Of a DNA stretch of 64,000 nt, positions 8,579 to 56,382 are shown piece by piece. This stretch comes from Candidatus Pampinifervens sinense (GTDB lineage Bacteria > Aquificota > Aquificia > Aquificales > Aquificaceae): the NCBI GenBank assembly GCA_037927135.1, contig JAXSPP010000005.1, forward strand, positions 64,001 to 128,000. Direction: 5' to 3'. Made by a program: the position numbers and the translations under genes. The notes below the pieces were generated by a model that saw nothing but the letters and a program-made list of their open reading frames with translations, did not search any database and was not told the origin of the DNA. Position 1 is the stretch's first letter; every line of letters starts with the position of its first letter.

Positions 8579-9592
8579 ATGGAGCTTTTGAGGCTTGTAA
8601 GGGCTTCGGGGTGAGCTAGTAAGGTAGGTCCGGCGGACCTAGAGAACTTAATAAGGGGGCTGGACCTTTATGTGGATGAACACACCCTTGTGGGTGTGGG
8701 CGACGATGCGGGAGTCTATGCGTACGGAGGGGAAGTCTACGTGCATACGGTGGACTTCATCACACCCATACTAAACGATCCTTACCTGTGGGGTGCTATA
8801 TCTACTGTCAATTCTTTGAGCGATGTTTATGCTATGGGATGCAAGCCTCTTAATGCCCTTGCTATTGTGGGCTTCAATAGTTGCGACCTTGACATAGGGG
8901 TGTTAAGGGAGGTTATGAGAGGTTGTGCAGACAAGCTAAGAGAGGCAAAAACGGTGCTTTTGGGAGGCCATACTATTGATGATAAAGAGCCTAAGTTTGG
9001 TCTTGCTGTGATGGGGGTATGCGAAGGTGGTAAGTATATTACACAGGCTGGGGCAAAGCCTGGTGAGCTTTTGGCACTTACAAAACCCATAGGTGTAGGT
9101 ATCCTTACAAAGGCTATAAAGGAAAGAAGGCTAAAGGAGGGAGATATTAAACATGCTATTGATTATATGCTTATGCTTAACGAGAGGGCCTCTTTACTTG
9201 TAAGAGAGTTTGCTAGCGCTTGCACGGATGTGACTGGCTTTGGCCTTTTGGGCCACGCTTACAACATAGCAAGAAGATCTAAAGTAAGACTCTGCATAGA
9301 CTTTTCAAAGGTTCCAATCTATGAGGAATCTATAAGGTTTGTAAAGGAGGGCATATATCCCAAAGGGGCGATGGACAATTACAGCTTTGTAAAGGATCAC
9401 CTTGTGGCCGAAGGCCTTCAAAGGTGGGAGCTTTTACTCCTTTCTGATCCTGTCACCTCCGGTGGACTGCTCTTTAGCTTTCCAGAGGAAAGGTTGAAAG
9501 ATCTTGAGGAAAGATCAAAAGACCTTGGCGTAAAGGTTTGGATAATAGGAAAAGTGGAAAAGGGGGAAGGGCTCATGGTATATAAGGGTTAA
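8579..9592 (+). CDS. selD: Selenide, water dikinase, selenocysteine-containing (in-frame TGA at 8612-8614)
   Basis: ATG 8579 reads [21 protein letters not shown], in frame with the ORF-track protein ([36 protein letters not shown]). The TGA falls at the catalytic G-C/U-x-x-K position. Confidence 0.95.
8625..8641 (+). promoter_or_regulatory. Candidate bacterial SECIS hairpin of selD
   Basis: TAGGTCC-GGC-GGACCTA perfect stem; the G-containing apical loop starts about 18 nt after the TGA. Confidence 0.75.
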
Positions 9593-11148
9593 ACGGTCCC
9601 TTCCCTTCTTAAGCTTTCCCTTGATATTATGTAGCTTTTTCTAAGCAGGGCTCTATTCAAAGCATCTACAAAGCCGTTTACACTTGCCCTTATTATGTCT
9701 ACATCCACACCCCTTCCGCTTGCCCTCACGCCATCTAGCTCAATAACAAGCCTTGATTCAGCTTGGGCATCTGTATTGGGTGTGAGGGCCTTTATGGAGA
9801 AGTCTAGCAGTTTGGGCTCTATTTCTAGGGCCTTCTGTATGGCCTTTATTACCGCATCCACAGGACCATTGCCTGTAGATGTGGCCGTCCTCTCTTCACC
9901 TTTAAAGCTCAAGACTACAGTGGCTGTAGGAAGGAGTTTGTCGCCAGTTTGAACTTGATAGTGTAATATCTTTATGGGTTCATCCTCTTCAGGCTTCATA
10001 AACTCTTCATAAACAAGGGCTTCAATATCTTCTTCGTATACTTCCTTTTTCTTGTCTGCCAAGGCCTTAAACCTTTCAAAGATCCTGTCAAGATCCTCTT
10101 CAGAAACCTCAAACCCTAGCTCTTTTAGCTTGCTTTTTAGCGCATGCCTACCTGAGTGCTTTCCTAGAACTATCCTGTTGGAAGGAAAGCCCACATCCTC
10201 TGGAGACATGATCTCATAGGTTAAAGGATTTGCCAAAACACCATGCTGGTGTATGCCCGACTCATGGGCAAAGGCATTGTCTCCCACCACAGCCTTATTA
10301 GGTTGTACAAAGCTTCCCGTTATCCTACACAATAGCCTACTGGTTTTGTAAATCTCCTTCGTGTTTATGTTGGTGTATAGGCCGCCAAAGAAGTCCTTCC
10401 TTACCTTAAGGGCCATAACTATCTCTTCTAAGGCTGCATTTCCTGCCCTTTCGCCTATACCGTTTATGGTGCACTCCACCTGCCTTGCACCGTGCTTTAT
10501 GGCCATAAGGGAGTTTGCCACAGCCATCCCAAGATCATCATGACAATGTACGCTTATTATGGCCTTGTCTATGTTTGGCACATTGTTCCTTATATCCTCT
10601 ATAAGCTTTGCGAACTCCTCTGGCACCGCATAACCAACCGTGTCCGGTATGTTTATCACCGTAGCTCCAGCCTTTATGGCAGTCTCTATAACCCTATAGA
10701 GGAACTCCCTTTGACTTCTGGTGGCATCCTCACAAGAAAACTCCACATCATCGGTAAACTTCCTTGCAAACTCTACAGCCTTCCTTGCCCTCTCTAGAAC
10801 CTCCTCTGGAGACATCCTTAGCTTGTACTTCATGTGTATCTCGGATGTGGCTATAAAGGTGTGTATCCTCTTTCTTTCTGCAGGCTTTAACGCTTCAGCG
10901 GCAAGCTCTATATCCTTCTCTAAGGCTCGCGCCAAGGAACATATCACTGGACCTTTCACTTCCCTTGCTATAGTCTCAATGGCTTCAAAGTCTCCCCTTG
11001 ATGCGGCTGCAAAGCCAGCTTCTATGATATCCACACCCAGCTTTGCAAGCTGATAGGCCATCTGTAGCTTTTCTTCTGTGGTCATAGAAAAGCCAGGAGC
11101 CTGTTCTCCATCCCTTAGGGTGGTATCAAAAATATAAACCCTTTCCAT
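9589..11148 (-). CDS. leuA: 2-isopropylmalate synthase
   Basis: [39 protein letters not shown] regulatory domain. Confidence 0.97.
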
Positions 11149-11168: not shown

Positions 11169-11197
11169 ATAATAATTCGCAATTTAATCTTTGTCAA
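11169..11197 (-). promoter_or_regulatory. sigma70 promoter of leuA
   Basis: Minus strand TTGACA (11197-11192), 17-nt spacer, TATTAT. Confidence 0.75.
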
Positions 11198-11206
11198 GGC
11201 CTTTCT
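11197..11206 (+). repeat. Left copy of 10-bp target-site duplication AGGCCTTTCT
   Basis: Identical to 12753-12762. Confidence 0.9.
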
Positions 11207-12752
11207 GAGGGTGTTCCCAAAATCCACTTTACTTACCGGTTATGTTAAAATACCAAAAGATGATAACCATAAGCGCTAAGCTTTTATTCTCAAGCTATCA
11301 AGATAAGGAAAAGGTCTTAGACCTCATGAGAATATGGTCCTCGGCTATGAGATATGCTTACAAAAGACTTCTGGAAGGCATGGAAATAAACACTTTAAGA
11401 AAGTTAATCCAAAATGTGTTTGGACTAAACTCAAGATATTCACACTCAGCCATTGTTAAAGCCCAAGCCTTGATGAAAGTAAGAGAAGAGAAAGGAGAAA
11501 GCTTAAGGAAGGTTATATTTGGTGGAAGGGATATTTTCAGAAAACTGCAAAAGAGACATATAAACGGGAAAGACTATCAAAGGTTAAAAATACAGTTCCA
11601 AGAAAAGAGAAAAGGCAATCTCTATTCCATAGGACAAAAACACTCAAAAGGAAATCAAAACACAAGTATAGAGGTAAAAGAAGATGGAGCTTATCTTAGG
11701 ATAAACACAGGAGAAAGGCAATATGTATATGCCTTGATAAGTGCGGGGGATAGGATAGAGAAGATTAAAGAGATAGCCTTTTCTGGGAAGGCTTACTCTG
11801 TAGAACTAAAGCTAAGAGATAGCAATGTGTATGCTTACTTTACCATAGAGGAAGAATATCCACAGATAGAGATTACAAAAGCATATGGAGTAATAGGTAT
11901 AGACTTAAACGCCTATCCAAACCACATAGCTTGGGCAGAGACGGATGAGTATGGAAATCTCCTAAGCTATGGTGAAATAGCTATGCCAGAACTGGGAAGT
12001 GGAAATGGCAATAAAAGAGATTATTACACATGGATATACGCACATAAGGTTATAAGCTTAGCTAAAGAAAAGGGAAAGGCTATAGTGATAGAAAAGCTAA
12101 AGCTAACCAAAAACAAAAGAGGGGACTACTCTGGGAGAAAGGTAAGGAGAATACAGCATAACTTTGCCTATAGGAAGCTATTAGAAAGGATAAAGCTACT
12201 TGCAAAAAGAAACTGTATAGAGGTGATAGAAGTAAATCCAGCCTATACATCCATCGTAGGCATGTTAAAGTATGCACCACAATACATGGTAAGTAAGGAT
12301 ATAGCTTCTGCCTATGTGATAGCAAGAAGGGGCTTAGGACTAAAGGAAAAGGTGCCAAAGAATTATATGGAGCTTATAAGAAGGCTAAGTGTAGAAGGAC
12401 TGATGGAACTGAAAGAGTATGTAAAAGAGAAAGTAAAGAATGCCTATTTAAAAGCCAAGCATATTAAAGAGATAGAAGCTTTGATAAAGGTTTTAAGCCT
12501 TGGGAGTGAGCCATGGAAGGTATCTGAGCCTCTGGAAGGAACAAGCTTAGGTATCCGATTTAATCCATGGCGAGTTCTCAAGGTAGTGGTGCTAACCGCA
12601 CTCTCTCCTGAGAGGATCCTTAGAGACCTCTCTGTCCTGAAAGGGAAACTCTTTCAGGGCTTGTGGGGAGACCCGATATGGGCGCGAGCTCCTACTGCAG
12701 GGGGTGGGGGCGTAGTCTGTGTGAAAACACAGGCTATTTTTGAAACACCCTG
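11207..12752 (+). mobile_element. Non-autonomous TIR-bounded element carrying only a TnpB-like nuclease
   Basis: Left end GAGGGTGTTCCCAAAAT vs reverse complement of right end CAGGGTGTTTCAAAAAT (14/17 match); flanked by a perfect 10-bp direct repeat AGGCCTTTCT; no transposase gene inside. Confidence 0.85.
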
Positions 12753-12753
12753 A
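11242..12753 (+). CDS. tnpB: TnpB-related (Cas12f-like) RuvC RNA-guided nuclease; true start may be ATG 11260
   Basis: N-terminal SSAMRYAYKRL helix, RuvC-I GVIGIDLNAYP, RuvC-II AIVIEKL, VNPAYTS, RuvC-III SKDIASAYVIARRGLG. No CxxC zinc ribbon. An extended -10 (TGtTAAAAT, 11243-11251) lies 8 nt before ATG 11260. Confidence 0.88.
   Translation: MLKYQKMITISAKLLFSSYQDKEKVLDLMRIWSSAMRYAYKRLLEGMEINTLRKLIQNVFGLNSRYSHSAIVKAQALMKVREEKGESLRKVIFGGRDIFRKLQKRHINGKDYQRLKIQFQEKRKGNLYSIGQKHSKGNQNTSIEVKEDGAYLRINTGERQYVYALISAGDRIEKIKEIAFSGKAYSVELKLRDSNVYAYFTIEEEYPQIEITKAYGVIGIDLNAYPNHIAWAETDEYGNLLSYGEIAMPELGSGNGNKRDYYTWIYAHKVISLAKEKGKAIVIEKLKLTKNKRGDYSGRKVRRIQHNFAYRKLLERIKLLAKRNCIEVIEVNPAYTSIVGMLKYAPQYMVSKDIASAYVIARRGLGLKEKVPKNYMELIRRLSVEGLMELKEYVKEKVKNAYLKAKHIKEIEALIKVLSLGSEPWKVSEPLEGTSLGIRFNPWRVLKVVVLTALSPERILRDLSVLKGKLFQGLWGDPIWARAPTAGGGGVVCVKTQAIFETP
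12656..12752 (+). ncRNA. Putative omegaRNA-like scaffold overlapping the tnpB 3' end and right TIR (5' boundary unknown)
   Basis: Hairpins GCTCCTACT/GGTGGGGGC (12688-12711) and TAGTCTGTGT-GAAA-ACACAGGCTA (12713-12736) rely on G-U pairs and covary with the copy at 47512-47608. Confidence 0.65.
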
Positions 12754-12762
12754 GGCCTTTCT
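12753..12762 (+). repeat. Right copy of 10-bp target-site duplication AGGCCTTTCT
   Basis: Identical to 11197-11206. Confidence 0.9.
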
Positions 12763-14071
12763 AACACTTCACCTCCAAAAGCTCACACTCCATGCTGAAG
12801 GGTTTAGAACTTACCACTTTGACTTTTACTATTTTCCCAAGCAGATCTTCGCTTCCCTTCAGGCTTGCCCACCTGTTTGTCCTTGTCCTTCCGATGAGCT
12901 TGCCCTTTTCATATCCTTCAATAAGCACCTCTTGCTCAGTCCCTTCGTAGGACTTGGCTATCTCACCAAGTATTTTCTTTTGAAGCTCTAAGAGTCTTGT
13001 CATCCTTTGAGTTTTTATCTCGTCTGGCACCTGACCCTCCATGGAGTAGGCTGGTGTGTCTGGCCTTGGAGAGAACTTAAAGGAAAAGACCTGTTCAAAC
13101 CTCACCTTTTCCAAAAGGTCCAGCGTTTCTTCAAAGTCTTCTTCTGTCTCTGTTGGAAAGCCTACTATTATGTCTGTGGAGAAGGTGATGCCCTTCACAT
13201 AATGCCTCAACATATCTATCTTCTCAAGGTATTCCTCCTTTGTATAACCCCTGTCCATAAGTTTTAATATTCTTGTGGAGCCAGATTGCACAGGAAGGTG
13301 AAGGTGTTCACATACCTGAGGTATCTCTCCCATGGCCTTTGCTATGTTTTCTGTTAGGTCCTTAGGATGTCCTGTGGTGAACCTTATCCTTTCTACTCCT
13401 GGCACCTCTGCTACCCTGTAGAGGAGTTCCTCAAAAGGTATGCCAAGGTCTTGACCCCATGCGGTTACATTCTGACCTAAAAGGTGTATCTCCTTTACGC
13501 CATCCTCCACCAAGAACTTCACTTCAGAGAGGATGCTCTCTAGGCTTCTTGATCTTTGCCTCCCTCTTGTCTTTGGCACAACGCAATAAGTACAGTTCTT
13601 ATCACAACCCTTCATAACGGTCACATAGGCACAAAACTGGTTATCTCTTACTGTAGGATACTCCCATAGCTTGTCTTCATCCTCCGGTGGGCTTTCCAAT
13701 ATGGCTATGGCCTTGTAGCCCGCTTGGGCCTGGTGGATAAGCTCTGGAAGCTGGTGCATGTTAAAGCTGGAGAACATTATATCTACCATAGGAGCCTTTT
13801 CCAGAAGCTTTTCTCCCATCCTTTGGGCAAGACAACCGCACACACCTATGAGGGCTTTAGGATTCTTCTCCTTTATCTTCTTGTATTCTCCCAAATGGGA
13901 ATAGACCTTTTGATCTGGCTTTTCCCTAATGGTGCATGTGTTTATAAGGATAATGTCCGCCTCTTCCCAGCTTTTGGCAGGCTCATAGCCCATGCTTTGT
14001 AGTATGCCCCTAAGCCTTTCCGAATCGTTAAAGTTCATCTGACATCCAAAAGTTTTTATATAGTACTTCAT
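12761..14071 (-). CDS. miaB: tRNA-2-methylthio-N6-dimethylallyladenosine synthase
   Basis: TFGCQMN..DSE, NTCTIRE, GCDKNCTYCVVP radical-SAM motif, C-terminal TRAM domain; start at ATG 14071. Confidence 0.97.
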   Translation of the reverse strand: MKYYIKTFGCQMNFNDSERLRGILQSMGYEPAKSWEEADIILINTCTIREKPDQKVYSHLGEYKKIKEKNPKALIGVCGCLAQRMGEKLLEKAPMVDIMFSSFNMHQLPELIHQAQAGYKAIAILESPPEDEDKLWEYPTVRDNQFCAYVTVMKGCDKNCTYCVVPKTRGRQRSRSLESILSEVKFLVEDGVKEIHLLGQNVTAWGQDLGIPFEELLYRVAEVPGVERIRFTTGHPKDLTENIAKAMGEIPQVCEHLHLPVQSGSTRILKLMDRGYTKEEYLEKIDMLRHYVKGITFSTDIIVGFPTETEEDFEETLDLLEKVRFEQVFSFKFSPRPDTPAYSMEGQVPDEIKTQRMTRLLELQKKILGEIAKSYEGTEQEVLIEGYEKGKLIGRTRTNRWASLKGSEDLLGKIVKVKVVSSKPFSMECELLEVKC

Positions 14072-14089
14072 AGTGATAAAATTTAACAC

Positions 14090-47511: not shown

Positions 47512-47608
47512 CAGGGTGTTTCAGAAATAGTCTGCACCTTCACACAGACTACATTCCCGCTCCCTAAAGCGGGAACTGGTGCCCACAGAGGGTCTCCCCA
47601 CAAGCCCT
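47512..47608 (-). mobile_element. Orphan right end / omegaRNA-like scaffold of the TnpB element family
   Basis: Ungapped match to 12656-12752 (75/96 identical over 12657-12752 by manual count); ends in the same TIR (...GAAACACCCTG); hairpins conserved by compensatory changes. Confidence 0.88.
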
Positions 47609-56168: not shown

Positions 56169-56382
56169 TTGTTAAAGCCCAAGCCTTGATAAGAAAATTA
56201 CAAAGGAGGCATATAAACGGAAAAGGTCTATCAAAGATTAAAAGTCCAGTTTAGGAAGGTAGGATTACGTTTATGCTTTGAAATGTGCCAAAAATTATAT
56301 GGAGCCTATAATATAGGCTAAGCATAGATGAGTTAAGGAAATGTGTAAGGGAAAGGTAAAGATAAAGGAAATAGAAACATTC
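56169..56382 (+). pseudogene. Heavily deleted relic of the same tnpB family
   Basis: 56169-56190 is identical to 11453-11474 (22 nt); following blocks resemble 11538-11598, about 11711-11741 and 12352-12482 in collinear order. Confidence 0.8.

Follow-up and report, generated by a model that had tools for sequence, protein, structure and literature searches.

TnpB nucleases are best understood in IS605 and IS607 elements, where excision is scarless and no duplications are made. These elements are described as having neither inverted ends nor target duplications (PMC6188088; PMC13565253). Among DDE transposons, Altae-Tran et al. (2023, PNAS; PMC10691335) described six TnpB branches associated with inverted terminal repeats and referred to solo TnpBs within such ends as 'mobilized by transposases in trans', and a review names ISL2, IS630 and IS1031 as the DDE partners of TnpB (PMC13565253). 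The same review, from 2026, asks why bacterial DDE transposons rarely carry obligate mobile element-guided activity (OMEGA) modules and how the target-adjacent motif (TAM) and the guide fit the duplication. Here we describe a TnpB-carrying element in a stretch of 64,000 nucleotides of Candidatus Pampinifervens sinense (contig JAXSPP010000005.1, positions 64,001 to 128,000), hereafter the window. The element is likely a non-autonomous transposon in which an OMEGA module derived from an IS607-type element lies between the ends of an IS5-like (DDE_Tnp_1) insertion sequence (IS) and has been moved in trans. Its kind was already published in 2023, and the locus is a good example of it, not a new class.

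The element spans positions 11207-12752 of the window (1546 bp) and is flanked by an exact 10-bp duplication, AGGCCTTTCT, read directly. An initial annotation made from the sequence had delimited the 1546-bp element, its exact 10-bp duplication and its imperfect 17-bp inverted ends, and direct reading confirms all three: the reverse complement of the right end, CAGGGTGTTTCAAAAAT, is identical to the left end, GAGGGTGTTCCCAAAAT, at 14 of 17 positions. The single TnpB-like gene of about 500 aa and the three RuvC acidic motifs reported there are likewise all present. The features of the element are as follows.

11191-11196, + strand: TTGTCA target motif, a candidate TAM, directly 5' of the left duplication copy
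11197-11206: left target-site duplication copy, AGGCCTTTCT, read directly and exact
11207-11223, + strand: left terminal inverted repeat, GAGGGTGTTCCCAAAAT, which matches the ends of the IS5-like partner family
11260-12753, + strand: TnpB-related gene, from the family-consensus start at 11260, with the frame open from 11242
12581-12752, + strand: candidate omegaRNA scaffold core, which overlaps the 3' end of the gene and takes in the right inverted repeat
12736-12752, - strand: right terminal inverted repeat, ATTTTTGAAACACCCTG, with reverse complement CAGGGTGTTTCAAAAAT
12753-12762: right target-site duplication copy, AGGCCTTTCT, read directly and exact

The sole long open reading frame in the element (11242-12753, + strand, 503 aa) ends in a TGA stop codon composed of the last two element bases and the first duplication base. 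Family alignment places the true start probably at the ATG at 11260. By comparison with homologs, most of which end near residue 478, the final ~25 residues represent read-through into the region of the RNA and the right end.

Further copies establish that the duplication is real. The present genome (G000) is a 12-contig draft, and a complete genome of the same genus (G016) holds seven full-length copies bounded by the same ends and 86-97% identical to one another. Five of the seven are flanked by exact 9-10 bp repeats that differ in sequence (AAATTTATC(A), AGAAGGTAGG, CCTTCCCCT, ATCACATAA and AGTAAGCTT). In the present genome, one further near-full copy (contig C9, 89% identical) has lost its left end, and miniature copies lie on contigs C6 (flanks AGTTAAAGGG and AGTTAGAGGA) and C1. 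Open frames of at least 489 aa are kept in seven of the nine full copies in the two genomes. A miniature copy in G016 (L075) reads TTTGTCA-AGAGGTTTTA-element-AGAGGTTTTA-TAATATT, and the matching site in the present genome (C8) reads TTTGTCA AGGGGTTTTA TAATATT, with the target present once; the site of the G016 copy L066 is also uninterrupted in the present genome. Different 9-10 bp repeats at each copy, together with an empty site holding a single target, show that the target-site duplication proposed at the outset holds beyond the window.

Smaller derivatives (C6 in the present genome; L075 and L068 in G016) keep the RNA end. A scan of G016 for the end sequence traced all hits with 0-1 mismatches, except one at 916630, to TnpB copies, miniatures and solo ends, and among the hits traced no element with other cargo lay between such ends; about a dozen hits with two mismatches were judged by spacing only. 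Loci in G006 with a variant left end proved to be solo ends beside host genes. A metagenome scan with a 16-mer of the end returned, among the matches listed, mostly unrelated sequences and two useful loci. One (L118) is a copy of a G016 miniature element, and the other (L166, soil) is an 892-bp IS5-like element with a two-frame transposase and the same 16-nt end core, AGGGTGTTTCAAAAAT, which indicates that this end type is not confined to hot-spring bacteria. Two elements lie head to tail with one duplication copy in common at L072 and L063 (G006 and G016), as in CACCCTG-AGTTATACT-GAGGCTG, an arrangement that points to insertion adjoining the end of a resident copy. The G016 copy L065 has no duplication, and its counterpart in the present genome (C7, 78280-78309) has 30 extra bases, in part faintly end-like, which may reflect a deletion at insertion or a remnant. 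The window itself contains two further traces of the family.

47512-47608, - strand: a solo right end of this family, with 78% identity to positions 1450-1546 of the element
56169-56371, + strand: short internal element fragments, corresponding to element positions 247-391 and 1142-1231

The ends of the element belong to a family of IS5-like insertion sequences found in relatives. The lead came from a DDE_Tnp_1 search, in which an IS of G023 bounded by AAGGTGTTCTAAAAAT was found to encode a DDE_Tnp_1 transposase; of 148 genomes from the order, 38 have a match to the N-terminal 145 aa of this partner transposase. The intact members have lengths of 796-1010 bp and encode proteins of 258-337 aa, which match PF01609 (4e-17 and 1.6e-12) and, below its cut-off, NCBIfam IS5_2 (1e-27). 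Their ends read GAGGCTGTTCTAAAAAT, GAGGCTGTTTTAAAAAT, GAGGGTGTTTGAAAAAA or GAGCCTGTTGAAAAAAT and are near-identical to those of the TnpB elements of the window and G016 (GAGGGTGTTTCAAAAAT, GAGGCTGTTTCAAAAAT or GAGGCTGTTCCAAAAAT), with GAGGSTGTTYNAAAAAT common to both. Exact flanking repeats of 9, 10, 9, 9 and 10 bp occur in five of 12 partner copies, against repeats of 9-10 bp, and one of 12 bp, for the TnpB elements. A TTGTCA-like pentamer lies 9-11 bp from nine of 25 partner ends. The partner IS carries no tnpB, and no copy with both genes was seen.

The autonomous partner is present in G089 and G061, hosts of a second clade of inverted-end TnpB elements described below. In G089, an intact partner (L235) with GAGGCTGTTCTAAAAAT ends and a 10-bp duplication occurs alongside eight TnpB elements with identical ends, and this co-occurrence is the strongest evidence for trans-mobilization. 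For the window element, trans-mobilization is inferred from these relatives, because no partner was found in G000 or G016. The initial annotation had suggested capture of the nuclease by a DDE element and mobilization in trans; this is supported by the IS5-like ends, the 9-10 bp duplications, the TTGTCA motif and the G089 genome, while its assignment to an IS256/Mutator-like group is not, since the IS with these ends encodes a PF01609/IS5_2-like transposase instead. The autonomous partner sought there exists as an IS5-like family with the same ends in relatives, and none was found in G000 or G016.

Several other candidates for the partner were rejected. The sole IS256-like gene seen, by eye and with no family search, is part of another IS, which has ends of its own and is nested in L225; at this locus (L225/L229, G023:C1) a copy of the partner IS is split by the IS256-type IS, which has 25-bp inverted ends. 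The ISAs1 family has CAGGG ends and makes an 8-10 bp duplication (ISfinder). Its model, NF033564, gave no match in 31 genomes, with the control matching two of 14 named genomes. In G006 and G082, the DDE matches were weak, covered N-terminal fragments and came from a different IS type that does not have these ends. A 958-bp IS was also considered, one copy of which (L074) lies between TnpB-type ends; that copy is nested in a miniature element, and the IS has its own ends, ACGCCGRGTGAGAAATT, and 24-36 bp repeats.

The 958-bp IS is of some interest in its own right. It encodes a 282-aa transposase with a weak IS982 match (E 1e-6), has unusually long direct repeats (~24-36 bp) and is present in about 22 copies in G016 (e.g., L079, L081, L083, L085, L087). 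It also breaks the assembly of the present genome, lying at most contig ends (C1, C2, C3, C4, C5, C6 and C9). Within the partner family itself, the target of one copy (L306, G032:C2) is palindromic, TTGTAA-ACCTTGGTT-TACAA, which hints at a transposase that would read two inverted half-sites spaced by the duplication.

The protein encoded by the element passes two NCBIfam models, TIGR01765 (N-terminal domain; 1.2e-17) and TIGR01766 (TnpB-related domain; 4e-16). It scores 48.4 bits against NF040570 guided_TnpB (cut-off 100), 15.8 bits against Pfam PF07282 (cut-off 26.3) and far under the cut-off of the Cas12f2 model, and the Pfam Cas12f1-like TNB domain gives a weak partial match (E 0.016, profile positions 1-28 of 60). 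At least 1275 homologs exist, under the NCBI label 'IS200/IS605 family accessory protein TnpB-related protein'; many are ~478 aa long and 59-63% identical, from Caldanaerobacter, Thermoanaerobacter and Caldicellulosiruptor. Across an alignment of 33 homologs, the RuvC triad D221, E284 and D353 (residues counted from 11242) is invariant, and the segment between RuvC-II and RuvC-III, where a C4 zinc finger was looked for, has no cysteine pairs and reads NPAYTSIVGMLKYAPQYMVSKD.

An AlphaFold2 model of the protein has a mean predicted local distance difference test (pLDDT) score of 72.4, with residues 423-503 mostly below 50. Foldseek matched it to AsCas12f (8j12_A, E 3e-11), ISFba1 TnpB (2.8e-6) and ISDra2 TnpB (8exa_A, 4.8e-5), and the best structural matches also include Cas12k and Fanzor2. 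In total, 58 chains were matched at E <= 0.001, nearly all of them Cas12, TnpB or Fanzor. The fold is matched over ~420-470 aligned columns with template modeling (TM) scores of 0.5-0.61 by target length and sequence identities of 12-15%. By its motifs and modeled fold, the protein belongs to a divergent, zinc-finger-less branch of predicted TnpB/Cas12f-type nucleases. The zinc finger is not strictly defining, because its loss has been reported for some TnpB branches (PMC10691335).

The closest relatives of this protein are found in elements of a different kind. In Caldanaerobacter, they belong to IS607-type elements with an upstream tnpA (MerR-type helix-turn-helix and serine recombinase), which often carries an internal deletion. 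Inverted ends are missing from these elements, the copies checked showed no flanking repeat, and the right end finishes in ...GTTTGGGTAACCAGG (..CCAGG). Those of one Caldanaerobacter genome (G001, L022-L028) lie directly after a GGAGG and only a few bases ahead of an ATG, with CCAGG as their terminus; they apparently target the gap between ribosome-binding site and start codon, rebuilding the site. Within the order of the window's host, the TnpB-like family occurs in 61 of 148 genomes at E ≤ 1e-10, and many copies have a serine recombinase motif upstream or an IS607-type right end. One related protein in a metagenome (P0112, 592 aa) joins the C-terminal part of a serine recombinase to a TnpB-like protein in a single frame.

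A second clade of inverted-end elements occurs in two other genera. These TnpB elements are 1633-1653 bp long, carry GAGGCTGTTCTAAAAAT on both sides and encode proteins 41-45% identical to that of the window. Both ends were found at four of seven fetched loci in G087 (two more have the right end only), eight of nine in G089, three of five in G061 and one locus in G086. Many of the repeats flanking them, which include ACCTGCTCTA, ATATGATCTT and TACCCACGCCTA, are decayed.

In a quick IQ-TREE analysis of 51 proteins, with the end type assigned from the flanks before the tree was built (16 of the 51 rows being IS607-type members of the order), the inverted-end rows fall into two clades, each with a support of 100. 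The window clade is sister to IS607-type Caldanaerobacter proteins (support 98), and the other inverted-end clade lies among IS607-type Aquificales proteins. Forcing a single inverted-end clade costs 99.6 log-likelihood units (p-AU 0.0037, approximately unbiased test). These relationships suggest that the inverted-end type arose at least twice, captured by the same IS family. The placement in a phylogeny that had been recommended for the window protein thus puts it beside IS607-type relatives.

This ancestry raises the question of whether the element is still of IS607 type, moved in trans by a serine recombinase, with its repeats and inverted ends incidental. Its protein family is IS607-associated, and of the two TnpA-like serine recombinases encoded in G016, one lies 1.6 kb away from copy L065. 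Against this, serine recombinases of this type are described as exchanging strands at a 2-bp core without making 9-10 bp duplications (PMC6188088; PMC13565253), whereas exact 9-10 bp repeats that differ per copy flank the window element, five of the seven G016 copies and the miniature inverted-repeat transposable element (MITE) L075, and an empty site holds the target once. No Resolvase-domain match was found in the present genome. The ends, for which an IS607-type origin had been named as an alternative in the initial annotation, match the IS5-like IS and not the IS607-type ..CCAGG. The explanation is already contradicted by the duplications and the empty site, and we regard its probability as negligible.

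The 3' part of the element appears to encode a structured RNA. GC content climbs from ~0.35 to 0.50-0.56 across the last 250 nt, and the + strand of 12490-12752 has a minimum free energy of -123.9 kcal/mol (z -7.15; none of 200 shuffles as low), compared with a z of -2.03 for the - strand. A consensus was built from 20 right-end-anchored 3' regions of G000, G016, G006 and one further metagenome-assembled genome (L015). It comprises 54 pairs in eight helices, with 98.2% of cells paired, and shows compensatory changes on 13 pairs (shuffles 4.3 ± 1.5, 0 of 500 reaching 13; slid controls 1-4). In helix 1, the terminal CACCCT of the right inverted repeat pairs with AGG..GTG at 12581-12588 (96.7% of cells paired). 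As this pairing joins segments ~170 nt apart, the right end belongs to the RNA. A hairpin at 12490-12580, upstream of the RNA core, is less conserved.

Similarity between the Caldanaerobacter sequences and the window open reading frame extends beyond the stop codon, which indicates conservation at the nucleotide level. Rfam returned no family match and only a sub-threshold snoRNA match on the opposite strand. Three hot-spring metatranscriptomes yielded no mapped reads, and one contig of a further run covers 147 bases at 90-95% likeness; neither result is a test of expression. Covariation supports a conserved RNA over the final ~170 nt, right end included, which is probably an omegaRNA scaffold.

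These observations suggest how the element may have moved and what its cargo may do. An IS5-like transposase supplied in trans would bind the common ends, insert the element beside a TTGTCA-like hexamer and cut the target with a 9-10 bp stagger, giving rise to the duplication. The nuclease would not be the transposase, and its likely job is the published OMEGA role (PMC10691335). The RNA would be transcribed out through the right end, with the right flank, that is, one duplication copy and the downstream DNA, serving as guide. In the window, the right duplication copy (12753-12762) would form the first 10 nt of a putative guide running to ~12772. An empty site, made up of TTGTCA, one duplication copy and the right flank, would present a TAM plus a full guide match and could be cut; an occupied site would match the guide over no more than 9-10 nt, up to the start of the left end. 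A role of the hexamer at the left end as TAM would account for an orientation bias seen only with the nuclease module on board.

Such a bias is present. The motif was counted as the pentamer [TA]G[TGA]CA ending 9-11 bp from the element end (genome background 0.017), leaving out ends that abut another element and hits of no assignable class. It occurs at 21 of 37 left ends of TnpB elements and at two of 40 right ends (Fisher 6e-7), with the left flanks showing T-G-T/G-C-A-A-G at positions -15 to -9. At the partner IS, the motif stands at four of 13 left and five of 12 right ends, with no bias, and the orientations of the two groups differ (21:2 versus 4:5; Fisher 0.010). The left-end bias fits TTGTCA as a candidate TAM.

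We tentatively propose, well aware that it may prove wrong, that the DDE transposon and the OMEGA module are matched partners, the TAM being the transposase's own target hexamer and the duplication the first part of the guide target. Homing would then defend insertions only if their left end adjoins the hexamer, which would yield the 21:2 bias that is not seen in the TnpB-free partner. The module may also let elements persist where a genome has lost the transposase. If true, this matched partnership would be a natural bacterial answer to the problem of combining RNA-guided homing with a duplication-making transposon.

The same pattern might arise if capture and past trans-mobilization are real but TTGTCA is only the transposase target, with the bias imposed by host selection and the module an inert fossil or serving another role. 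Insertions whose right end and outward RNA face a promoter with such a -35 box would be lost. In the window, the minus strand reads TTGACA at 11197-11192, followed by a 17-nt spacer and TATTAT at 11174-11169; by the sigma-70 consensus, this is the predicted leuA promoter, with TTGACA as its -35 box, so that the motif and the box coincide. Even on its own, the partner IS has the motif next to its ends, and target choice therefore needs no TnpB. A G016 copy (L064, G016:C1:226000-229800) was inserted independently at this leuA-proximal TTGTCA, is oppositely oriented and has a 9-bp duplication, CCTTCCCCT; it is the one clear right-end case and points its RNA into leuA. The lack of a partner found in the present genome is also consistent with this explanation. 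Yet the partner IS is unbiased (four left, five right), although the promoters it encounters are the same. Conservation of the open frame and of the RNA pairs across copies that are 86-97% identical argues for a working nuclease-RNA pair, and the miniatures keep the RNA end, as published for stand-alone omegaRNAs (PMC10691335). Overall, we consider it rather unlikely that the motif is a transposase target and nothing else.

Several observations weigh against the view of a captured module moved in trans by an IS5-like transposase. PF01609 has no matches in G000 or in the complete genome G016, the 145-aa partner query has none in G000, G016 or G006, and even at E 0.1 a profile of seven partner sequences finds nothing in G000, G016 or G083. 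G016 nevertheless holds its seven copies, five with intact ~500-aa frames and two 97% identical, and these look fairly recently active without a visible transposase. Clean duplications are missing in two of the seven G016 copies and in most G087 and G089 copies. The two-capture result comes from a quick tree search, with the single-clade test (p-AU 0.0037) chosen after the tree was seen, and the 21:2 ratio depends on end classes and some left/right calls set by eye. Host selection at promoters, where the motif is the -35 box, is a live alternative source of the orientation bias. As the contig ends of the present genome are repeats, a hidden partner copy there is conceivable, and with no partner found in G000 or G016 the present copy may be stranded.

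The G016 copies could also be read as evidence of autonomy, with the TnpB-like RuvC protein, which has an RNase H fold, itself transposing the element with a 9-10 bp stagger and no DDE partner. The protein is the only gene in the element, and G016 combines seven copies, two of them 97% identical and five with intact frames, with no partner transposase and no other-cargo element found between such ends. However, the same ends, duplication length and target motif belong to a TnpB-free IS with an ordinary DDE_Tnp_1 transposase. The protein is 60% identical to IS607-type homologs that depend on a serine recombinase, its fold aligns with those of RNA-guided nucleases over ~450 columns, and a conserved guide-RNA-like structure is kept beside it. 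To our knowledge, no TnpB has been shown to transpose DNA. Autonomy is thus very improbable, and mobilization in trans by an IS5-like transposase remains the likely explanation.

The neighbors of the element are leuA (9589-11148, minus strand) and miaB (12761-14089, minus strand), and it sits just upstream of the predicted leuA promoter. For annotation purposes, its gene is an ordinary mobile-element gene between leuA and miaB. The two genes are neighbors in the present genome only; adjacency was not found in any of 30 other genomes searched, so an empty leuA-miaB site was unobtainable. In G016, the DNA past the leuA-side insertion matches contig C7 of the present genome, which indicates a rearrangement breakpoint at or near the element.

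The locus may add several things to the published picture: a purely non-autonomous form, two separate captures, a right end built into the RNA and a motif-orientation pattern that makes the TAM question testable. It offers a compact natural case: the partner IS is defined, the hexamer is fixed and lies outside the 9-10 bp duplication, which varies, and a bias is seen only with the module aboard. A thermophile-derived, zinc-finger-less TnpB of ~480 aa with an RNA scaffold of ~170-260 nt may also interest screens for compact nucleases. Among the papers listed in our literature search, none combined TnpB with Aquificales terms, and no mention of transposons was found in a 2014 paper on Aquificales non-coding RNAs. 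ISCbe4 and ISCahy1 of Caldicellulosiruptor may be named relatives; they appear in the literature searched as names only.

Compared with known systems, the window element combines traits that are otherwise found apart. Like the DDE-associated TnpBs described in PMC10691335, it has inverted terminal repeats, a TnpB 3' end less than 250 bp from the transposon end and a solo TnpB for which trans-mobilization is inferred. Those branches are reported with a DDE gene beside tnpB; in contrast, the window element has a partner IS without tnpB, its nearest protein kin are serine-recombinase-associated, and its duplication is 9-10 bp. With IS607 elements it shares the protein family and a homologous 3' RNA region. 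It differs from them, as they are described to end in GG (PMC6188088), in having 17-bp inverted ends and 9-10 bp duplications. As regards IS200/IS605/IS607 membership, there is no tnpA in the element and no Resolvase match in the present genome; a Y1 transposase was not searched for. The predicted nuclease resembles Cas12f and the ISDra2 and ISFba1 TnpB structures in its fold and RuvC triad, but it has no CxxC...CxxC zinc ribbon between RuvC-II and RuvC-III.

Fanzor provides a parallel as a TnpB homolog carried as cargo in duplication-making DDE-type transposons (Bao and Jurka 2013, PMC3627910; PMC13565253). For Fanzor1, the TAM is said to take in a short duplication of fixed sequence, whose 3' copy lies in the RNA scaffold (PMC13565253). 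In the window element, by contrast, the duplication is variable and 9-10 bp long and would be guide or target, while the fixed motif lies outside it. The element is also like MITEs and cargo derivatives of the IS5 family, which have ends, duplication length and target in common with an autonomous IS and carry no transposase gene. Unlike IS5 MITEs, its cargo is a putative nuclease and guide RNA that plausibly act for the element, and its miniatures keep the RNA end.

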